In this document: positions 2,340-54,344 of the stretch, piece after piece
How the letters are laid out: the number at the start of each line of letters is the position of its first letter
Position numbering within the stretch: the first letter of the stretch is position 1
Assembly: GCF_988242995.1 (NCBI RefSeq)
Contig: NZ_OZ547043.1
Reading direction: 5' to 3' (one strand)
DNA length: 64,000 bases
The notes under the pieces: generated by a model
What the model saw: only the letters and a program-made list of their open reading frames with translations
Told to the model about the DNA's origin: nothing
Databases searched by the model: none
Made by a program: the position numbers and the translations under genes

Positions 2340-2345
2340 GAAAGA

Positions 2346-2377
2346 TGCCGGATGCGGCGTGAACGCCTTATCCGGCA
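2346..2377. repeat. REP (repetitive extragenic palindromic) element
   Basis: tgccggatgcggcgtgaacgccttatccggca imperfect palindrome typical of E. coli REP units, in the yphA/yphB convergent gap. Confidence 0.8.
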
Positions 2378-2386
2378 TTTTATAAA

Positions 2387-3259
2387 TTACAGTAACGCAA
2401 CCCGCAACGACATCTCTGAAGTTGTTGATTCCCCTGGTGCAAGCGCAATGAGATCCCCCCCTTCCGGGCGATGATGGTCATCCGGCGCATGGCTCATCGG
2501 TTCCAGACAGAAGAAATCAAACGCATATCCTTTATCAAACGCCGGGTCGGAAACAAAGATGAAATAACATGGTGCAGGTGGCGTCGTTTCCATGATGATG
2601 GCATAACCCTCCTGCGGCTGCTCGATGCGGGCCTGACCATTCCATCCGGCAAAGCCATTGTTCACCCACTGGTGCGGCAACGGCGCGAGCTGGTTGAAAT
2701 CCAGCTCTTGCGGTAGCTGCTCGCAAAACTCACCCGCCAGCCACTGCTCCCGCTCCCGCCAGTAACCGCTCGCCTGCGCCTGAATCCGCGTTTGTGGTGA
2801 CAACGGAAAATAAGGATGCCAGCCGGTACCAAATGGCAGCGTCTCTGCCCCTTGATTGGTGACAGAGAGCGTCACCGTCAGCGTATCTGCCGTTAAATGA
2901 AACGCCTGACTTACCCGATAGTGATAAACACCGCTGCGATGTTCATACACCAGACACAAGCTATCTTCGCTGCGCGAGACACATTGCCACTGCCCCAGCC
3001 AGCCGTCGCCGTGCAGATAGTGCGCATCCCACTCAACATTCGGTTGCAGTTGATACTCACGCCCCTGCCAGACAAAACGATTGCCGCTCACCCGGTTTGC
3101 AAACGGCACCAGCGGAAAACAAGAGGCATCGGTTGCCACACCGCTTTTTTTACCGGGACGTAAGAGCGGCGTCGCGTCACGCCAGAAGCCTTCGATGACG
3201 CCGCCCCGGTCAGAAACGTCCAGCTTTAGCGGCCCGTGAGATAAGGTATAGATGGTCAT
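2387..3259 (-). CDS. yphB: aldose 1-epimerase (mutarotase) family protein
   Basis: 290-aa ORF; last gene of the co-directional yphG-yphB cluster. Confidence 0.85.
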   Translation of the reverse strand: MTIYTLSHGPLKLDVSDRGGVIEGFWRDATPLLRPGKKSGVATDASCFPLVPFANRVSGNRFVWQGREYQLQPNVEWDAHYLHGDGWLGQWQCVSRSEDSLCLVYEHRSGVYHYRVSQAFHLTADTLTVTLSVTNQGAETLPFGTGWHPYFPLSPQTRIQAQASGYWREREQWLAGEFCEQLPQELDFNQLAPLPHQWVNNGFAGWNGQARIEQPQEGYAIIMETTPPAPCYFIFVSDPAFDKGYAFDFFCLEPMSHAPDDHHRPEGGDLIALAPGESTTSEMSLRVALL

Positions 3260-3270
3260 CCGCTGACTCC

Positions 3271-4332
3271 TTAATCCGGGAAGTTAATCACAACTTTCCC
3301 GCATTTACCGCTCGCCATCAGCGCATAGGCATCTCCTGCCTGTTCCAGTGAGAAGCGATGGGTAATGGCATTACGCGGCCACAGTTTCCAGTCCGTTAAA
3401 TCGTGGGCGCATTTTTCCATATGGAATAGACTGGTCACCCAGGAGCCAATAATCCGCCGTTGATGGTGCATCAGATCGGCGCTAACCTCGAACTCCACTT
3501 TTCCGGTTTCCCCGATGTAAACCACCCGTCCCCAGTCAGCAGTGGATTGCAACGCCAGTAAGCGACCTGCGGCATTACCGGAACAATCGAGCGCAACATC
3601 CGCGCCACCGTGGGTGAGTTCGGCGATAATCTGCGGCAGACCTTCGGTGGTTGCTAAATAGCCGTGATCCATCACCCCTAACTGTTTCGCCATCGCCAGA
3701 CGTTCCGGCAGCATATCAACGCCGATGATCCTTTTTGCACCGCGACCTTTCGCCAGCATCATCGCCATCATGCCGACCGGCCCCAGACCGACCACCAGCA
3801 CGTTATCGCTACCGGAAACTTCGCCGCGCAAAATCCCTTCATACGCTGTACCAACGCCGCAACTGATAAACGCACCATCTTCATAGCTCAGCGCGTCCGG
3901 CAGCAGGATCAGATCTTTTTCTTCCGCCAGCAGGTATTCAGCATGGCCGCCGTCACGCTGCCAGCCGTAAGCCGCTTTTCCTTTGCCAGTACAAGAGATA
4001 GGAAAGCCGCGGCGGCAGTTCGGGCAAAAACCACAGCCAGAAATGTGATACACCAGCACGCGGTCGCCCTCTTTAAAATGGCGGCAGCCTTGCCCCATCG
4101 CCACAATCTGCCCGCACGGTTCATGACCGTTGATAAATCCCTGGTATAACGGTTTATCGGGTGCCGCTGCCGTGGCACGGTGTTGATGATAGATATAGTG
4201 GACATCACTTCCGCAAATCCCGGAGGATTTCATTTTGATCAGTACCTGGTTAATCCCCGGCGTCGGCACCGCAACTTCCCGCAGATCGACGGTCGAATTT
4301 CCTGGTAAATAAGCTGCCAGCATCGTTTTCAT
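3271..4332 (-). CDS. yphC: zinc-dependent alcohol/polyol dehydrogenase (MDR family)
   Basis: GHEPCGQIVAMG zinc-ligand motif and GLGPVGMMA Rossmann motif; start moved to internal ATG (353 aa). Confidence 0.85.
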   Translation of the reverse strand: MKTMLAAYLPGNSTVDLREVAVPTPGINQVLIKMKSSGICGSDVHYIYHQHRATAAAPDKPLYQGFINGHEPCGQIVAMGQGCRHFKEGDRVLVYHISGCGFCPNCRRGFPISCTGKGKAAYGWQRDGGHAEYLLAEEKDLILLPDALSYEDGAFISCGVGTAYEGILRGEVSGSDNVLVVGLGPVGMMAMMLAKGRGAKRIIGVDMLPERLAMAKQLGVMDHGYLATTEGLPQIIAELTHGGADVALDCSGNAAGRLLALQSTADWGRVVYIGETGKVEFEVSADLMHHQRRIIGSWVTSLFHMEKCAHDLTDWKLWPRNAITHRFSLEQAGDAYALMASGKCGKVVINFPD

Positions 4333-4397
4333 AAATCCCTCATTAACAATACGATTAATTTTCATCCCTGCCGCACCCGCGCCAGGGGCGTTAAGGT

Positions 4398-5420: not shown

Positions 5421-6932
5421 TCAGTGCACAGACAGAATGGCGGACATCAGCTCATCCACATTGACCGGCGAGTGAAACTCCTGCGAGAACGTACCGTGCT
5501 GTAATAACAGGATGCGGTCACACACCAGCGGCAACTCCTCCACTTCACTGGAGATAAACACCACACTTTTTCCTTCGGCAGCCAGCTCGCGGACAATACG
5601 GTAAATCTGCTGTTTGGCTTCGATATCGACGCCACGCGTTGGCTCGTCGAGCAACAAAATCTGGCTGGCGGCATAGACCCAACGACCGATCACCACTTTT
5701 TGCTGATTGCCGCCAGAAAGCGTGCCGATGGGCGTTTCGCTACTGGCGGCCTTGACCGTCATCCGCTGCATCACCTCTTCGGTCAGGCGGCGGATGGTGG
5801 ACCATTGCAGCACACCGTTGGCGCTGATTTTTTGCCGATTGGTCAGCACTGTATTTTCGTCAACGCCCAGCCAGGGAATGATCCCCGCTTCTTTGCGGTT
5901 TTCTGGCGTATAGCCAATGCCGCGTTTCAGCATGTCGCCGTAATCGGGGCGCGTGATTTTCTCGCCGTTGATAACAATTTCGCCCTGTTCATACGTCTCC
6001 AGCCCAACTATGGCTTTCAACAATTCACTGCGCCCTGCCCCCAGCAGGCCAGCAATGCCGAGCACTTCGCCACGACGGAGCGTAAAGCTGATATCCTCCA
6101 GCTTGGGCTTATGGCGTAACGCACGGACTTCCAGCACAGCCTGATCGACAATTTCCTGAGGGGAAACCGGCGCAATATCAACGTGATCGCGCCCGAGCAT
6201 TAGCGACACAATATGATGCGTGGAGGTGTTTTCGAGCATCACATCGCCCGCTACCTGACCATCGCGCATAACGGTGGCACAGGAGGCAATGCGGCGGATT
6301 TCTTCCATCCGGTGGCTGACATAAATCACCGCCACGCCCAGTGCCGACATCTTTTTAACCGCGCTGATCACCAGTTCAACTTCCGCACTGGCAAGCGAAC
6401 TGGTAGGTTCATCAAGAATGACCACGCGCGGCTCGCCCTTCATCACCCGCGCAATTTCCACCAGTTGCTTTTGCGCCGGGCTTAGCGTTGAAACAAGTTG
6501 TTCAGGGCTAACGTCAACGCCCAGCGCCTGTAAGCAACGTTGGGCATCCTGCGCCATTTGCAGGTAATCAATCATGCCGTTGCGGCGGGGCCACTGACCG
6601 AGGCAGAGGTTTTCCGCCACCGTCAGTCCCTCCACCAGACTTAACTCCTGATAAACCGCACGAACCCCCAGTTCAGCGGCACGGCGAGTCAACGTAGCTT
6701 CGTCACCTTCCAGTCGCGTCTCGCCAATCCAGATATCACCGCTATCCGGACGTTCACTGCCGGTAAGCATTCGAATGAGGGTCGATTTGCCCGCGCCGTT
6801 TTTGCCTAACAGCGCACGAACTTCTCCTTTATTGAGCGTGAAGTTAACGTTATCCAGCGCAACGACGCCGGGATAACGCTTATTTCCAGCTACCACTATT
6901 GCTACCGGGACTGCCTCTGTTGCCGTGAACAT
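5421..6932 (-). CDS. yphE: ABC transporter ATP-binding protein with duplicated ATPase domains
   Basis: 503 aa with two Walker A motifs (GKNGAGKST and GLLGAGRSEL), as in RbsA/MglA-type sugar importers. Confidence 0.9.
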   Translation of the reverse strand: MFTATEAVPVAIVVAGNKRYPGVVALDNVNFTLNKGEVRALLGKNGAGKSTLIRMLTGSERPDSGDIWIGETRLEGDEATLTRRAAELGVRAVYQELSLVEGLTVAENLCLGQWPRRNGMIDYLQMAQDAQRCLQALGVDVSPEQLVSTLSPAQKQLVEIARVMKGEPRVVILDEPTSSLASAEVELVISAVKKMSALGVAVIYVSHRMEEIRRIASCATVMRDGQVAGDVMLENTSTHHIVSLMLGRDHVDIAPVSPQEIVDQAVLEVRALRHKPKLEDISFTLRRGEVLGIAGLLGAGRSELLKAIVGLETYEQGEIVINGEKITRPDYGDMLKRGIGYTPENRKEAGIIPWLGVDENTVLTNRQKISANGVLQWSTIRRLTEEVMQRMTVKAASSETPIGTLSGGNQQKVVIGRWVYAASQILLLDEPTRGVDIEAKQQIYRIVRELAAEGKSVVFISSEVEELPLVCDRILLLQHGTFSQEFHSPVNVDELMSAILSVH

Positions 6933-15469: not shown

Positions 15470-15495
15470 GTTGCCGGATGGAAACATCCGGCAAC
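15470..15495. terminator. GC-rich hairpin between convergent hmp and glnB; putative bidirectional terminator
   Basis: gttgccggatg-gaaa-catccggcaac perfect 11-bp stem; no strong U-tract on either side. Confidence 0.45.
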
Positions 15496-17944: not shown

Positions 17945-18108
17945 ATTCACCAGACTTAGCGCCTTTCCCAGTGGGCGTAATTGTTACAGACAGTCTGGAC
18001 ATGGACAGCGCGGAGAAACCGGAGCGTACATGTCGTACGTGAGGATTTCGAGCACTGCCCAGGGCCAAACTGGCAAATAAAATAGCCTGATGGGATAGGC
18101 TGTTAGCA

Positions 18109-19536
18109 TTATTTCGTGTTTTTCGACGACGGCAATTCAATGCGGAAGCAAACGTCTTGCCCGCTCTCGTCGACCAGATACAGTTCCCCTTGCATACGGC
18201 GAATACAATCCCTGGCAATGCTTAATCCCAGACCGCTGCCCTTCACCGCCCCTTTTCGCTGGTGGCTTCCCTGAAAAAAGGGTTCGAAGATCATGGCGCG
18301 TTCCTCTTGCGGAATGGGTGTTCCTGTATTGATGACATCAATATAAACCCGCGCGCCATGTAAACTGCTGCGAAGGCAAATGTTACCGGATTCAGCCCCG
18401 TAGTGCACCGCATTGGAGTAAAGATTATCCAGTACGCTCATCAGCAGCATTGGCTCCGCCAGGCAAGCTGTTGCTTTGAGATCGACATCGGTATGCATCA
18501 TTTTAGCCCGCGCGGGCAGGCTATGAGCAGAAACCACCATTTCCACCAGTGGCGCTAACTCAACATTCTCCAGTTCCACCGCACTGTCCGCCTGTTTACG
18601 GTTGTAATCAAGCAGTTGTTCGATCAGTTTTTGCAAATTGCGGCTGCTGCTATCAAGAATGCTCACAACCTCTTTTTGCTCTGGCGTAAGCGGCCCGACA
18701 ACCTGGTCAGCCAGTAATTCAGTGCCCTCGCGCATACTCGCCAGCGGCGTTTTTAATTCATGAGATAAATGTCTTAAAAATTGATGACGTTGGGATTCCA
18801 GCCATGACAGGCGCTCACTTAACCAAAGAATACGTTGCCCAACCGAGCGTAACTCGCTCGGTCCACTGAACGAGACGCTATTGCCCAGAGAACGCCCTTC
18901 CCCCAGCCGGTTGATCATGCGCTCGATATTTTTCACCGGACCGATAATCATCCTCGTGAAAAGCAGTACCATCACCAGACTCACCAGAAATAGCACCAGC
19001 GATTGCCAACCAAAATATTGCCCACGTTCGGCGATTTCACGCTGAAGTTGCTGCCCACGAGAGAACACCACTGTGCGCGTGGCCTGTACCATTTCGGTAT
19101 TGGCACTGGCAAAGGCTTCAAGACGTGCGGCGGCGGCAGCATCGGGACCGCTGTTGTTACACTGAAGTTGAGCCAGATTGTTCAAATCCTGACGTAATGC
19201 CTGGTAGAGTTTATCGTCCGGCAGCACGCCTGCGTGGGCATCGAGCATTTCGCTGTAACGCTTGCGCTGGCTTTGATAAACCTTCGCAAGCGTAGGGTCG
19301 TCCAGCACGCAATACTGACGGTAGCTACGCTCCATCTCCAGCGCCGCGTTGGTCATCGCTTCACTGCGCCGGGCATCAATAAGCGTAGTGCGGTTAACCA
19401 GCGCCGCCTGATCGCTAAGCGCATTCAGGCTTTGCCAGGCTTGCCATGCCAGCACCAACAGGGGCAGCAGAATCAGCAAAAATGCCAGCATTACCAGTTG
19501 TCGTAATGAGCGGGGAAAAACGGGCCAGCGTTTCAA
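18109..19536 (-). CDS. glrK: sensor histidine kinase
   Basis: H-box LSHELKTPLASM plus ATPase G-boxes; start set at in-frame TTG (475 aa); track ORF extends to 19599. Confidence 0.82.
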   Translation of the reverse strand: MKRWPVFPRSLRQLVMLAFLLILLPLLVLAWQAWQSLNALSDQAALVNRTTLIDARRSEAMTNAALEMERSYRQYCVLDDPTLAKVYQSQRKRYSEMLDAHAGVLPDDKLYQALRQDLNNLAQLQCNNSGPDAAAAARLEAFASANTEMVQATRTVVFSRGQQLQREIAERGQYFGWQSLVLFLVSLVMVLLFTRMIIGPVKNIERMINRLGEGRSLGNSVSFSGPSELRSVGQRILWLSERLSWLESQRHQFLRHLSHELKTPLASMREGTELLADQVVGPLTPEQKEVVSILDSSSRNLQKLIEQLLDYNRKQADSAVELENVELAPLVEMVVSAHSLPARAKMMHTDVDLKATACLAEPMLLMSVLDNLYSNAVHYGAESGNICLRSSLHGARVYIDVINTGTPIPQEERAMIFEPFFQGSHQRKGAVKGSGLGLSIARDCIRRMQGELYLVDESGQDVCFRIELPSSKNTK

Positions 19537-19594
19537 GGTGTTACTCTCGTCAGACGCGAATAGCCTGATGCTAACCGAGGGGAAGTTCAGATAC

Positions 19595-19778
19595 AACAAA
19601 GCCGGGAATTACCCGGCTTTGTTATGGAATAAGGCGGTGCCTAACTCGACGTTTCGCCCGATGGTTGATATAGCTACGCTGATATCAGAAGTTGGACGGC
19701 AGGCACCTTGTTGTGCGTCATTCGAATTTTATGTAGCACGTCCCGAAGGGGCTGACATAAGTCGGTGAATGAGCCACT
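19595..19778 (-). ncRNA. glmY: GlmY small RNA (about 184 nt)
   Basis: Transcript read from 19778 begins AGUGGCUCAUUCACCGACUUAUGUCAGCCCCUUCGGG and ends in terminator caaagccggg-taat-tcccggctttg plus U-run (19597-19621); no ORF. Confidence 0.8.
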
Positions 19779-19789
19779 GGTTACTATTA

Positions 19790-20008
19790 TGCAGTAACTG
19801 TGCCAATAAAGAAAATAGTTTGGTAACGTACTGATTATACGCTGCTTTAAGGGATTTATGGCTTCTTCGCTATTTGAATGTAAATCAGCCACTGTGTCGC
19901 TAAAAAGAGACAACTTAAGATAAACTTATTAGATGCCATTAAAATCAATGAGTTAAGTGTCGCCAGAAAGCGACACGGTAAACCACCCATTGTCGTGATT
20001 TACAGACA
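19790..20008 (-). promoter_or_regulatory. glmY promoter: sigma54 -24/-12 element plus three upstream TGTC-N10-GACA activator sites
   Basis: Minus-strand TGGCACAGTTACTGCA at 19790-19805; palindromes at 19895-19912, 19958-19975 and 19991-20008. Confidence 0.75.
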
Positions 20009-20056
20009 CAAAAAAGCTCCCGAAGTTGGGAGCTAATAATAGTGGTTGGTGCTTAA

Positions 20057-20087
20057 TGCCGGATGCGGCGTGAATGCCTCATCCGGC
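20057..20087. repeat. REP element downstream of purL
   Basis: tgccggatgcggcgtgaatgcctcatccggc, near-identical to the REP at 2346. Confidence 0.8.
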
Positions 20088-20110
20088 TGCAAAACCAATG
20101 GGTTGACGGC

Positions 20111-23100
20111 TTACCCCAACTGCTTACGTGCATTGCGGAAAATACGCATCCACGGCCCATCCTCGCCCCAGTTTTCCGGATGCCAGGAGTTGCTGACAGT
20201 ACGGAAAACACGTTCCGGGTGCGGCATCATAATGGTGACTCGACCACTTTCAGTCGTAACCGCCGTAATACCGTTCGGTGAACCGTTCGGGTTAGCCGGG
20301 TAGGTTTCAGTGACTTTACCGAAGTTATCGACATAGCGCAGTGCCACCAGCCCTTTGCTTTCCAGTGCCGCCAGATGCGCCGCATCACGCACTTCCACGC
20401 GCCCTTCACCATGAGAGACAGCAATCGGCATTTGCGAGCCCACCATCCCCTGCAACAGCAGAGACGGGCTTTGGGTTACTTCAACCAGGCTGAAACGCGC
20501 TTCAAAGCGATCGGAGGTATTGCGCACAAAACGTGGCCACAACTCACTACCTGGGATCAGTTCGCGCAGATTAGACATCATCTGGCAACCGTTACATACC
20601 CCCAGCGCCAGCGTTTGCGGACGATGGAAGAAGGTTGCAAACTCATCGCGTACACGGTCATTGAACAGGATAGACTTCGCCCAACCTTCACCGGCACCCA
20701 GCACATCACCGTAGGAGAAACCACCGCACGCGACCAGGGCGTGGAAATCCTCCAGGCCCGTGCGTCCAGCCAGCAGGTCGCTCATATGCACGTCGATAGC
20801 ATCGAAGCCTGCACGGTGGAAAGCTGCCGCCATTTCAACATGTGAGTTCACGCCCTGCTCACGCAGCACAGCAACTTTCGGACGTGCGCCAGTGGCAATA
20901 TACGGTGCTGCCACATCTTCGTTGATATCGAACGACAGTTTTACATTCAGGCCCGGATCGGCGTCGTTTGATTTCGCCTGGTGCTCCTGGTCGGCACACT
21001 CCGGGTTGTCACGCAGGCGCTGCATCTGCCAGGTAGTTTCTGCCCACCAGACACGCAACGTGGTGCGGCTTTCGCTGAATACAGTCTGCCCGTTGGCGGT
21101 AATCACAAAACGGTCACCGGAAACCGCCTGCCCAACATAATGGACGCAATCAGCAAGCCCATGCTGTGCCAGTACCGCTTCAACTGCTTCACGGTCAGCG
21201 GCACGAACCTGAATCACCGCACCCAGTTCTTCGTTAAACAACGCCGCCAGGCGATCGTCACCCAGAGTGGCGATATCCGCGTCAATGCCGCAATGACCAG
21301 CAAAGGCCATTTCCGCCAGCGTTACCAGCAGGCCGCCATCCGAGCGATCGTGGTACGCGAGCAGCTTACGCTGTGCTACCAGCGCCTGAACCGCGTCATA
21401 GAAACCTTTCAGTTGCGCGACGTCGCGTACATCTGCCGGTTTGTCGCCAAGCTGACGATAAACCTGCGCCAGCGCCGTTGCGCCCAGCGCGTTATTGCCT
21501 TTGCCCAAATCAATCAGCAGCAGTGCGTTATCTTCGGTAGAAAGCTGTGGCGTGATGGTGTGACGTACATCTTCCACGCGGGCAAATGCAGAAATCACCA
21601 GCGACAGTGGCGACGTCATTTCGCGCTCTTCGTTACCTTCCTGCCAGCGGGTTTTCATCGACATAGAGTCTTTACCCACCGGGATCGTCAGGCCCAGCGC
21701 CGGACAAAGTTCTTCGCCCACAGCTTTAACGGCTTCATACAGGCCCGCATCTTCACCAGGGTGGCCTGCCGCCGCCATCCAGTTGGCGGAAAGTTTAATG
21801 CGTTTGATATCGCCAATTTGTGTTGCGGCGATGTTGGTTAACGCTTCACCGACCGCCAGACGGGCAGAAGCGGCGAAATCCAGCAGCGCAACCGGCGCAC
21901 GCTCGCCAATCGCCATCGCTTCGCCGTAGTAGCTATCGAGGCTGGCGGTAGTGACCGCGCAGTTAGCGACCGGCACCTGCCACGGACCCACCATCTGATC
22001 GCGCGCTACCATGCCGGTTACGCTGCGGTCACCAATGGTCACTAGGAAAGTTTTCTCCGCCACGGTCGGCAGGTGCAGCACGCGTTTCACCGCGTCAGCA
22101 ATGGTAATCCCTTCACGAACCAGCGCATCACCCTTCGCTTTCAGCGTTTGTACTTCGCGGGTCATCTTCGGCGTTTTACCAAGCAGTACGTCCAGCGGCA
22201 GATCGATCGGCTGATTATCAAAATGACGATCGTGCAAAGAAAGATGCAGTTCTTCGGTCGCTTCACCAATCACCGCGTATGGCGCGCGCTCACGCTTACA
22301 CAGTTCGTCAAACAGCGGTAACTGATCGGCAGCAACCGCCAGCACGTAGCGTTCCTGGGATTCGTTACACCAGATTTCCAGCGGGCTCATGCCCGGTTCG
22401 TCGCTCAAAATATCGCGCAGTTCGAATTTACCGCCGCGCCCGCCGTCGCTCACCAGTTCCGGCATGGCGTTAGAAAGACCGCCAGCGCCGACGTCGTGGA
22501 TAAACAGGATTGGGTTGGCATCACCAAGCTGCCAGCAACGGTCGATCACTTCCTGGCAGCGACGCTCCATCTCCGGGTTGTCGCGCTGTACGGAAGCAAA
22601 GTCGAGGTCGGCATCAGACTGACCAGACGCCATGGAAGACGCCGCGCCGCCGCCAAGACCGATGTTCATTGCCGGGCCGCCGAGAACGACCAGCTTCGCA
22701 CCAACGTTGATCTCGCCTTTTTGTACGTGATCGGCGCGAATGTTGCCGATCCCCCCCGCCAGCATGATCGGTTTGTGATAACCGCGCAGCTCTTCGCCAT
22801 TGTGGCTATTCACTTTTTCTTCATAAGTACGGAAGTAGCCGTTCAGTGCCGGACGACCAAATTCGTTGTTAAATGCCGCGCCACCCAGCGGGCCTTCGGT
22901 CATGATGTCCAGCGCGGTGACAATGCGCTCAGGCTTACCGAAATCTTCTTCCCACGGTTGTTCGAAGCCAGGAATTCGCAGGTTGGAAACGGAGAAACCA
23001 ACCAAACCAGCTTTCGGCTTTGCGCCACGTCCGGTGGCACCTTCATCGCGGATTTCACCGCCGGAACCGGTCGCCGCGCCCGGCCACGGAGAAATCGCCG

Positions 23101-23998
23101 TCGGGTGGTTGTGAGTTTCGACTTTCATCAGAATATGCGCCGGTTCCTGATGGAAATCGTAGCGGCCCGTTTCGTGGTCAGCAAAGTAGCGGCCCACTTC
23201 AGAACCTTCCATTACGGCGGCGTTATCTTTATAAGCAGAGAGAACGTGATCCGGCGTGGTTTCGAAGGTGTTTTTGATCATCTTAAACAGCGATTTCGGC
23301 TGCTGTTCACCATCGATAACCCAGTCGGCGTTAAAAATTTTGTGGCGGCAGTGCTCGGAGTTCGCCTGGGCAAACATATACAGTTCGATGTCGTTCGGGT
23401 TACGACCAAGCTTTGTGAAAGCATCCTGCAAATAGTCAATTTCATCTTCCGCCAGTGCCAGGCCAAGACGCAGGTTAGCGTCGATTAGCGCCTGACGGCC
23501 CTGCCCCAGCAAATCAACGCTGGTGACCGGAGTCGGTTGATGGTGTGCAAACAGCTGCTCTGCATCATCTAAAGCAAAAAAGACCGTTTCCATCATGCGG
23601 TCGTGCAGTTCAGCGGTAACCTGCTGCCATTGTTCATTGGTCAGCGTACCGGCTTCTATATAGTAAGCCACGCCGCGCTCAAGACGGTTTACCTGTTGCA
23701 GCCCGCAGTTATGGGCAATATCGGTCGCTTTCGAAGACCAGGGAGAGATGGTGCCAGGACGCGGGGTCACCAGCAGGAGTTTGCCTTGCGGGGCGTGGCT
23801 GGCGAGTGCCGGGCCATATTTCAGCAGGCGTTCAAGTTGTGCGTGCTCATCATCGTTTAACGGCGCATTGAGGTCAGCAAAATGGACATACTCGGCGTAA
23901 ATAGTGTGAACCGGGAGCCTGGCAGCCTGAAAACGTGCCAGCAGTTTGTTGATTCGGAATGCCGACAATGCAGGCGAACCACGCAGAATTTCCATCAT
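20111..23998 (-). CDS. purL: phosphoribosylformylglycinamidine synthase (large single-chain form)
   Basis: 1295-aa ORF with C-terminal glutamine amidotransferase domain. Confidence 0.95.
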
Positions 23999-24074
23999 AA
24001 GTCTCTCGTCTTCTAAGCTTTCGGTGTACCCAAGGGGGGGAAACGGGCGTCATTATAAAGAATCTGATGCGCTG

Positions 24075-35777: not shown

Positions 35778-36257
35778 TCACTGGCTCGCGTCTTCCGAAG
35801 ATGTTTCAAATCGCACAAGGCCAGGCGGCAATGCCACGCTTAAGATGATCGGTTGCCATTCAGACCGGGCAGCAAACTTTCGAGAGCAGCCACGTGCAAT
35901 CAGGAATCCACCAACGCCACCGAGAATCGCACCGCATAATGCTGCAATATCTGAAGCAAAGAGTAGCTGAAATAGTGAAGCGATGAGGAATAATCCCACC
36001 AGCGGCGACATATAAACCAGTAATGCGGAGCTAAGCAGGCTGCCTTCGGCGATTCCTAATTCTACTTTTTGCCCCGGCACTAACGGCTCATCACAGGGTA
36101 CGACAATGGTATGCGTGGTTTGCGGGCCAAGTTTATTCAACACGCGGCTACCGCAACCGGCACGTGAAGCGCAGCTGCTGCATGAGGCTTTAACATCACA
36201 ACTAACCAGCGCCTGCCCGTTTTCCCAGGAGACGACGGTAGCCCACTCTTTGATCAT
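35778..36257 (-). CDS. rseC: sigma-E regulatory protein RseC
   Basis: 159-aa ORF with Cys-rich N-terminus and hydrophobic C-terminus; start overlaps rseB stop. Confidence 0.9.
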   Translation of the reverse strand: MIKEWATVVSWENGQALVSCDVKASCSSCASRAGCGSRVLNKLGPQTTHTIVVPCDEPLVPGQKVELGIAEGSLLSSALLVYMSPLVGLFLIASLFQLLFASDIAALCGAILGGVGGFLIARGCSRKFAARSEWQPIILSVALPPGLVRFETSSEDASQ

Positions 36258-37210
36258 TGCGCTGCCCCGAACTTAATATTCTCGGCAATGCGTTTCGCCG
36301 TTTGCGGCGGCAGTTCACCGACAATGGTGATTTCGGCGTTATCACGTACGCTTGTACTGACGGTTCTGCGCCCGGTGCGCAACATCTGATCGGTGCTCGA
36401 TGGCGTAGCGCGGTTAACGTTTACCGAGAAGCTGAATAATCCGTCGGAATAGAGACGTGATTCGATAGGCATGTTGTCCATCGTCGGTAGCGGACGTCGA
36501 CTACTGGAAACTTCGCTAAAACCCTGTGGCAACCAGGTTGGCGTCCAGCTGAATTTAGCTTTTTCACCTACAGGAACAGAAAGCAACGGCGGCAAATTTG
36601 CCTTCGCCAGCGTCTGCATACTGCTGCTGATATCCTGATTGACATTAAAAGCAATCACGCGAAATTGTTCCAGCGTTTCACCATCGCGATCAAGGAGATC
36701 AACCCGCATCGGTAATTTCGATTCGGTGTCCATCCACACGATGTAGCTGTAGCGTGTACCATCTCGGGCAACCACACGAATGACTTCGCAAAGACGATCA
36801 GCAATACGCGTGCGCCCGACGGAGATAAAGTCGTAGTAAGGAGAAAGGCGTTTGAAATCGGTATAGATGAGCGATGGTAGAGAATCAACAATGTAATCGC
36901 CATTAAGCGTGAACGGTTCAAGTCCCGGTTCAAAATAGCTGATTTCATTGCCGCGCTGTACCACTTCCCGGCGCGGGCCATCCATTTGCAACAATTGTGC
37001 AAGAGGACGGTTATCGAGGCGTGCATGTCGATAACGCAGAGACTCAACACCCTGTTTATTGATGCTGATGAATGACAGCTCGTAATTCAGTGACTGACTG
37101 GCCAGGTTCATCTGCTGTAATAACGCCCCGGACGCGGGAGTGGCCGAGGCGTTAGCAGAGAATAACAGGCTACCTGTCACTAATGACATGGCAAACCAAA
37201 GTTGCTTCAT
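36254..37210 (-). CDS. rseB: periplasmic regulator of sigma-E, RseB
   Basis: 318-aa ORF with signal peptide; start overlaps rseA stop by 1 nt. Confidence 0.92.
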   Translation of the reverse strand: MKQLWFAMSLVTGSLLFSANASATPASGALLQQMNLASQSLNYELSFISINKQGVESLRYRHARLDNRPLAQLLQMDGPRREVVQRGNEISYFEPGLEPFTLNGDYIVDSLPSLIYTDFKRLSPYYDFISVGRTRIADRLCEVIRVVARDGTRYSYIVWMDTESKLPMRVDLLDRDGETLEQFRVIAFNVNQDISSSMQTLAKANLPPLLSVPVGEKAKFSWTPTWLPQGFSEVSSSRRPLPTMDNMPIESRLYSDGLFSFSVNVNRATPSSTDQMLRTGRRTVSTSVRDNAEITIVGELPPQTAKRIAENIKFGAAQ

Positions 37211-45722: not shown

Positions 45723-45769
45723 ATTTGCAGGAAAACGCCGGATGGCAGCGTTGCCACCCGGCTGATTTA

Positions 45770-46807
45770 TCAGGCTTTATTCTGACGCCACCATTCACCA
45801 AGCAAAACGCCAGTTGCGACAGAGATATTTAGCCCGGCAACGTTGCCAGTACCGTCAATCTTCACGCGCAGATCGTTTGGATCGCGTGCGGCATCCGGTA
45901 ACCCTTCATATTCCTGACCCAGCACCAGTACCATTTTCGCTGGCAGACTGGTTTTGAACAGCGGTTTACCCTGCTCGCTGGAAGTGGTCACTACGGTGTA
46001 ACCCGCCTGACGGAAATCATCCAGCACGTTAACAATGTTGTCGCCAGTAATCGGCTGAACGTGCTCTGCGCCGCCTTCTGCGGTACGGATAGCCGCACCC
46101 GACTCCAGCAGTGCCGCATCCTGCACCACAACGCCTTTCACGCCGAAGTGCGCACAGCTGCGCATCATGCCACCCAGGTTATGCGGGTTAGATTCGTTTT
46201 CCAGTGCCAGTACACAATCCTGCACGCCTGCCTGGCTTACCCACTGCTGCACGGTTGTACCGTTACGCTTTTTGATCAGGAAGCAAACGCCGCCGTGATG
46301 TTCCGTGCCTGACGCTTTTGTCAGTTCCGCTTCATCCACAACATGGTACGCTTTGCGGTTTGCTGCCATCCAGCGCAAGGCTTCTTTAAAACGCGGCGTT
46401 ACACTCTGGATAAACCAGGCGCGAACAATCGCTTCAGGACGGCTCTGGAACAGTGCCTGACAGGCATTTTCGCCGTAGACGCGGGTTTCTTCCGCACGCT
46501 GACGACGCAAAACTTCCGGATCAATAAAACTTTTACCACTGATGCCACCGTGATCGGCCTTTTCCGGCGTCTCATCACCCGGCGCGCGGGAAACTGTGCG
46601 CCACGGCGACTCTTCCCACTTGCGGTCACGGGGCTGACTCTGTTTGTCATCGCGGGCGGGGCGACGGCCACCGTCAGCACGAGATTTTCCTGGACGCCCG
46701 CCCCCTTTCCCGGTACGCGGGTTGTGGGTACGTTTATCAGAATCATCATCACTGCGGACATACATCACTTTGACCTTGCCGCTTTTACCTTTCATTTCAT
46801 CGTTCAT
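45770..46807 (-). CDS. yfiF: SpoU/TrmH-family RNA 2'-O-methyltransferase with basic low-complexity N-terminal region
   Basis: C-terminal SpoU methylase domain; N-terminal Arg/Lys/Gly/Asp-rich segment; start at MNDEMKGK (345 aa). Confidence 0.85.
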
Positions 46808-54025: not shown

Positions 54026-54344
54026 GCCATTATGTCTCCTGCCGTAATCCGATGCTTTTGTCGGTCGCTGTTGTTTATTTTTTTTGGTAAAGAAAATGTT
54101 ATACATTTGTTGCGTATCATTATGCAACCTTAACCATGAATTTAGTTAGCAGGAAAATGGTTATTGAGGAGCTTAAGGATAAATTTCTGGTAAGGAGGAT
54201 GTATGGAAGTGGGCAATTTGGGGAAACCGTATCCGTTGCTGAATCTGGCGTATGTGGGGGGATAATGCGGATATCTACACTCGCCGCAACTCTTCGTAGG
54301 TCGGGTAAGACGCGCCAGCGTCGCATCCGGCATTTATTCCGCAC

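Follow-up and report, generated by a model that had tools for sequence, protein, structure and literature searches.

REPs are imperfect palindromes of 30–40 nt that are present in about 600 copies per genome, accumulate just downstream of genes, and are spread and rearranged by a domesticated HUH transposase, TnpAREP (RAYT). In Escherichia coli REPs, a conserved GTAG lies 5′ of the foot of the stem (CTAC on the complementary strand). The y-type REP, or palindromic unit, was reportedly described by Stern in 1984 and by Bachellier in 1999. A total of 584 REPs have been counted in K-12, 84 of them single (Ton-Hoang et al., 2012; PMC3333891). Binding and cleavage by TnpAREP require both the GTAG and a mismatch in the stem, and published mutants without the GTAG were inactive (PMC3333891; PMC8266576).

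Convergent gene pairs are where about 60% of REPs lie, and a REP is present in 207 of 704 such pairs. Table S16 of a 2026 preprint lists the K-12 site 2673769–2673811 (yphA:yphB) as REP185, among 306 bidirectional terminators, in log and stationary phase. Moreover, annotated REPs accompany 13% of intrinsic terminators (Dar and Sorek), and REP325 of the yjdM-yjdN operon was described as a dual element, terminator and mRNA stabiliser, proposed to restrict read-through while protecting the mRNA upstream of it (bioRxiv 10.64898/2026.03.23.713779).

The DNA analysed here, a 64-kb stretch referred to as the window, is part of a chromosome of the Escherichia coli type and extends from hcaD, yphA, and yphB through glrK, glmY, and purL to an rRNA operon. 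It contains two similar palindromes, copy 1 and copy 2, in the following setting.

2337–2339, + strand: yphA stop codon TAG, 2–5 nt upstream of the foot of the copy 1 hairpin
2346–2377 (feature entry 2345..2378), no strand: REP copy 1, a y-type unit, orthologue of K-12 REP185
2387–2389, − strand: yphB stop codon TAA, 8 nt before the copy 1 hairpin along yphB transcription
19595..19778, − strand: glmY sRNA gene, start at 19778; MG1655 annotation moved over via alignment
19895..19912: GlrR activator site ABS3, matching the TGTC-N10-GACA consensus of PMC3045617
19958..19975: GlrR activator site ABS2, matching the same TGTC-N10-GACA consensus (PMC3045617)
19991..20008: GlrR activator site ABS1, TGTC-N10-GACA (consensus of PMC3045617), at −213 to −230 from the glmY start
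20009..20034, − strand: predicted purL intrinsic terminator, stem-loop 20034–20015 and T-run 20014–20009
20057–20088, no strand: REP copy 2, a y-type unit in the purL 3′ UTR, 22 nt past the purL stop
20111..23998, − strand: purL CDS, stop codon 20111–20113

The order downstream of copy 2 on the purL strand is thus the intrinsic terminator, the three GlrR sites, and glmY. The pattern TGTC-N10-GACA occurs in the 64-kb window only at ABS1–ABS3, and an Rfam match to GlmY_tke1 covers positions 19631–19778.

Copy 1 (TGCCGGATGCGGCGTGAACGCCTTATCCGGCA) and copy 2 (TGCCGGATGCGGCGTGAATGCCTCATCCGGCT) share strand and orientation, and 3 of their 32 positions differ. At a threshold of ≤3 mismatches they were the sole matches in the window, and 100 dinucleotide-preserving shuffles yielded 0 pairs, which bore out the near-identity of the two REP palindromes claimed in the initial annotation. 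The positions of the stop codons likewise agreed with its placement of both copies at gene 3′ ends, one where yphA and yphB converge and the other at the end of purL, ahead of the glmY promoter; both sites were present where it had put them, except that its end of copy 2, 20087, fell one base short of the 32-nt register (20088), which is immaterial. Both copies are extragenic, copy 1 lying between the convergent yphA and yphB and copy 2 between the tandem purL and glmY. Folded as RNA, copy 1 gave −27.0 and −22.9 kcal/mol on its two strands and copy 2 gave −23.8 and −22.2 kcal/mol; the z-scores of all four folds were between −4.5 and −6.5, and no shuffle folded equally well. The arms of copy 2 (20058–20069 and 20076–20087) were 92% complementary.

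Comparison with the y-type REP core (blastn-short) showed matches at 30/30 positions for copy 1 and 28/30 for copy 2. No REP features are annotated in the RefSeq record of MG1655, and the consensus was checked independently by scanning a 50-kb piece of MG1655 for REP units with an anchored regular expression. This sample contained 22 REP units, with y units of the form TGCCGGATGCGGCGTAAACGCCTTATCCGGCCTAC, from which copy 1 differed solely at one loop base. Copy 2 departed from the y type by a C-to-T change in the loop and by a reduced bulge: the conserved stem bulge (A12A13 opposite G26C27), present in copy 1 as AA opposite GC in a 2×2 internal loop of the − strand fold, was weakened in copy 2 to GA opposite GC, leaving a 1×1 mismatch. 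A 551-nt query including copy 1 had a median of 2 matching places per genome and a maximum of 8 (exact seeds ≥28 nt), and a 201-nt query over a composite (BIME) allele of the yphA/yphB gap, gene ends included, matched a median of 28 places per genome. The two copies are therefore ordinary E. coli y-type REPs, members of a long-known repeat family, and they resemble each other because each resembles the family consensus. They have in common with the y-type REPs of E. coli the imperfect palindrome sequence, the internal stem mismatch, and the extragenic 3′-end position, as well as many copies per genome and locus-specific variation of copy number between strains. They are unlike them in lacking GTAG/CTAC at the stem foot and in being singletons, as against the single fraction of 84/584 in K-12. 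The supplements of RepRanger made no mention of the genes at the two loci.

The missing motif was traced at each locus. In the MG1655 sample, 17–18 of the 22 REP units end in GGCCTAC. Copy 1 ends CCGGCATTT (CCGGC-ATTT, with CATT in the place of the motif), and copy 2 ends CCGGCTGCA (CCGGC-TGCA, with CTGC, that is, GCAG on the other strand). For copy 1, the lack of CTAC is explained by the structure of the locus, since the single-unit allele of the yphA/yphB gap equals a longer composite allele minus the segment between two ATCCGGC repeats, whichever the direction of the change. At the purL site, an intact CTAC was found in the divergent lineage E69 (CCGGCCTAC); SCPM-O-B-8794 and E. coli proper have CTGC. 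As GTAG is highly conserved, though not universal, its absence points to degenerate, probably immobile units that still fall within the REP family, and the K-12 orthologue of copy 1 bears the name REP185 despite the missing motif. By analogy with the GTAG-less mutants, no TnpAREP activity is predicted on copies 1 and 2, which are probably immobile relics for want of GTAG/CTAC.

Other REP-like elements were found in the window. A third unit at 54296–54333 (− strand; GTAGGTCGGGTAAGACGCGCCAGCGTCGCATCCGGCA) is z2-like, with a core match of 22/22; it lies just past the 5S end of the rRNA operon and, unlike copies 1 and 2, has an intact GTAG. The convergent gap between hmp and glnB holds a perfect mini-palindrome at 15470–15495, TTGCCGGATG-GAAA-CATCCGGCAA, which corresponds to the outer arms of a REP without the inner stem, and whose K-12 orthologue is entered as REP187, a bidirectional terminator, in a table of the 2026 preprint. 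A degenerate REP-like palindrome at 45733–45781, GCCGGATGGCAGCGTTGCCACCCGGC followed by TGATTTATCAGGC, occupies an apparent intergenic gap.

The gap between the convergent yphA and yphB measures 47 nt and is mostly occupied by copy 1, the hairpin of which spans 2342–2381 as + strand RNA. Copy 1 is identical to the MG1655 unit at the same locus; it is the orthologue of K-12 REP185 and has thus already been catalogued. Like the 306 bidirectional intrinsic terminators, it forms a symmetric GC-rich hairpin in a convergent gap, with flanks rich in A on the 5′ side and in U on the 3′ side. Unlike them, its U-tract is interrupted on the + (yphA) strand, where the hairpin is followed by UUUUAUAAAUU and part of the tract is drawn into the stem by the fold, and the − (yphB) strand has a weak CUUUCC tail behind the hairpin. 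A simple terminator scan made no call for copy 1 owing to its imperfect stem. A yphA/yphB gap with 112 additional nt was found in 467 of 5,425 complete E. coli genomes (e.g., strain MCJCHV-1); it holds a CTAC-bearing y unit, a z2 unit that is inverted and has GTAG, and a partial unit.

Once transcribed, copy 1 would place a stable hairpin at the 3′ end of the mRNA, which on the yphA strand would resemble an intrinsic terminator. By analogy with published work on other REPs, copy 1 most likely serves the 3′ ends of yphA and yphB in both directions, ending transcription and blocking exonucleases, in line with the listing of the K-12 site. Lying 2–8 nt from both stop codons, and hence within 15 nt of each, it may also impede terminating ribosomes. 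According to a published figure legend (Fig. 4G–H), terminal REPs do not measurably lengthen mRNA half-lives genome-wide, so that stabilisation at copies 1 and 2 is not assured. A separate Rho-dependent (bicyclomycin-sensitive) site has been mapped at MG1655 2674648 (+), at about position 3220 of the window and antisense to yphB (Adams 2021); its location inside yphB suggests + strand transcription antisense through that gene, possibly yphA read-through past REP185.

At purL, the hairpin is intact in the window, and MG1655 (K-12) has an 18-nt internal deletion, the remnant having no stable fold (−9.8 kcal/mol, z = +1). Of 5,425 complete E. coli genomes, roughly 40% have lost the purL REP hairpin to internal deletions, which represent at least three independent alleles. 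Removing 18 nt between AATGCCG repeats from an intact allele of the O104:H4 type gives the MG1655 allele exactly, and removing 18 nt between AATGCC repeats from the window allele gives that of MLI114; the GMF065 allele is obtained from an intact allele by taking out 19 nt between GGC repeats. The numbers of genomes were estimated by allele-specific searches in which rows were taken at even intervals along the ranking, as ∼3,000 intact, ∼1,900–2,000 of the K-12 type, and ∼350–415 of the GMF065 type. The AATGCC direct repeat of copy 2 results from the C-to-T change in the loop, one of its three differences from copy 1. Deletions may have recurred between the two AATGCC copies after this change had made the repeat, and the alleles are consistent with copy 2 being lost in E. 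coli by repeated slippage deletions between short direct repeats. The presence of an intact purL REP in more than half of E. coli genomes leaves room for weak selection on it. In GMF065, an IS200/IS605-family element (tnpA) is inserted precisely between ABS1 and the A/T-run of the terminator (positions 2011–2713 of the extracted locus; ∼20009 of the window), and this genome also carries the 19-nt REP deletion allele.

The origin of copy 2 could be followed in divergent lineages, which were found by a contig pattern search anchored on ABS1 and the terminator. The purL 3′ ends of the Escherichia strains E69 and SCPM-O-B-8794 are 93–94% identical to the window, and in the interval from the purL stop to the terminator these strains have a composite element in which a linker of ∼45 nt joins a y unit to a z1-like unit (positions 4215–4335 of the extracted locus in E69 and 1975–2085 in the second divergent lineage). 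This arrangement is like the BIME-1, or RIP-type, composite (y, L linker, z1); the purL site of the window differs in that the y unit and a few bases of the linker are all that is left. The full composite was found at purL in no complete E. coli genome, and the y unit with part of the purL composite linker recurs at other E. coli loci. Judging from these alignments, copy 2 would be what remains of a composite REP element, namely its y unit, and the purL series would run from the composite through a lone REP to a remnant. The linker of the divergent lineages contains AATTCAATATATTGCA, a candidate IHF site one mismatch from the consensus, ∼330 nt upstream of the IHF-dependent glmY promoter. A larger structure, with an outer helix flanking copy 2 in a 106-nt fold, was considered and rejected, as its flanks are replaced by linker in the outgroups.

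Next to copy 2, we identified a more conventional element. The purL terminator on the purL strand consists of AGCTCCC-AACTTC-GGGAGCT, a GC-rich stem of 7 bp with a 6-nt loop, and the tail UUUUUUG. This predicted terminator (20034–20009) sits between copy 2 and the GlrR sites and directly abuts ABS1; its stem was conserved in every allele aligned, as were the three GlrR sites. Termination of purL transcripts is predicted from the sequence at the T-run 20009–20014; the Term-seq tables of Adams 2021 and TERMITe contained no purL 3′ end. On the purL strand, copy 2 is followed by UUAAGCACC without a U-tract, so that it does not qualify as an intrinsic terminator. Transcribed in the purL 3′ UTR upstream of the real terminator, copy 2 would be at most a redundant exonuclease barrier. 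Given that 13% of terminators are REP-associated, such a combination of REP and terminator is a common one. Copy 2 is like REP325 in being a REP within a 3′ UTR. It is unlike REP325 in being a lone unit as opposed to a tandem array of ∼12 units (35800–36386 of the MG1655 sample), and in having a separate intrinsic terminator after it, which is absent from the description of REP325.

Further variation was observed around the glmY promoter. Positions 19936–19938 read GATGCCATT in the window versus GATAATATT in MG1655 and strain 2014C-3075, just upstream of an apparent IHF-like motif, AATCAATGAGTTA (∼19944–19956), in the glmY promoter region; the change would lower the A/T content beside this candidate site. 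The glrK-glmY-purL segment (18000–24000) reached a best identity of 98.6% among 5,425–5,426 complete E. coli genomes, and a 601-nt purL-glmY query (19600–20200) reached 98.2% at best, compared with 99.8% for the yphA/yphB region. To judge from these identities, the source lineage, or at least its 18000–24000 segment, is unrepresented among complete RefSeq E. coli genomes; the DNA may come from Shigella, or the segment may be recombinant.

Taken together, the data describe ordinary y-type REPs that form 3′-end hairpins, of which copy 2 is a redundant relic and both are probably immobile, a reading to which we assign a probability of about 88%. Other explanations were weighed against it. The small difference between the copies, 3 of 32 positions, could be taken as a sign of a specific relationship, such as recent copying or gene conversion between the loci. 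However, copy 1 equals the consensus, and copy 2 departs from the consensus and from copy 1 at the same internal positions; the flanks of the copies have nothing in common, and the two loci have separate allele series, each of them conserved in thousands of genomes. A special link is thus extremely improbable, and we rejected it on the ground that each copy merely fits the family consensus. It is also highly improbable that these REPs function as DNA, by binding gyrase, IHF, or DNA polymerase I or through contacts that organise the nucleoid, and not as RNA hairpins. The introduction of PMC3333891 states that BIMEs bind IHF, Pol I, and gyrase, but the IHF (L linker) and gyrase (tandem BIME-2) activities are attributed to composite BIMEs and the window copies are lone; in addition, Hi-C and imaging in the 2026 preprint showed neither REP–REP contacts nor an effect on compaction, and the purL unit is often deleted. 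A third account would make copy 1 mainly translational, with ribosomes that stall at the hairpin, followed by mRNA cleavage, tmRNA tagging, and lower YphA and YphB levels. The stalling mechanism reportedly goes back to Liang, Rudd and Deutscher in 2015. The distances from stop codon to hairpin, 2–5 nt for yphA and 8 nt for yphB, speak for this account, as a REP <16 nt from a stop codon has been reported to lower translation (Liang 2015, as relayed in PMC12306157). Against this, the 467 genomes with the larger composite have the same first unit, so that spacing alone cannot tell the alleles apart, and ribosome stalling is compatible with a terminator or stabiliser role instead of being an alternative to it; as the main function of copy 1 it seems doubtful, albeit possible.

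The initial annotation proposed that copy 2 insulates the activator sites of glmY from purL read-through. In its general form, the purL REP would stop read-through, or supercoiling, from purL before it reaches the GlrR and IHF sites of the σ54-dependent glmY promoter. Copy 2 is indeed located between purL and the activator sites, its hairpin is stable (−23.8 kcal/mol), and REP/BIME elements can attenuate transcription, partly via Rho, as reportedly shown by Espeli 2001 and as described for REP325. However, the canonical intrinsic terminator conserved in all alleles lies between the REP and ABS1, and copy 2 has no U-tract on the purL strand. Moreover, a glmY promoter fragment from −238 to +22 was fully regulated by GlrR, σ54, and IHF (PMC3045617); this fragment corresponds to positions 19757–20016 of the window and ends inside the terminator, leaving copy 2 outside at −279 to −310. 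Finally, ≥3 independent deletions have removed the hairpin from K-12, the strain used to establish glmY control, and from the other genomes that make up the ∼40%. The insulation proposal is therefore not supported, and we regard it as very unlikely. Rho-assisted attenuation by the lone purL REP, where the hairpin is retained, would be secondary to the terminator even there. It is also quite unlikely that the purL allele series tunes purL mRNA stability, or the small escape of transcription into the glmY upstream region, strain by strain; were it true, regulation at the purL-glmY junction would be diversified by the gain and loss of REPs.

With respect to the reading of both copies as ordinary 3′-end REPs, their discovery is in itself of little importance, REPs belonging to the bacterial repeats that have been known longest and copy 1 being catalogued as REP185. 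The comparison of the purL alleles nevertheless bears on how this region is interpreted. It is the conventional intrinsic terminator abutting ABS1 that would really shield the glmY activator sites from purL. Since K-12 is without the purL hairpin, transcript data from K-12, including mapping of the purL 3′ end, cannot test the role of the hairpin. The purL locus provides a clear small example of REP decay, and its natural alleles with and without the REP could be used for testing REP function.
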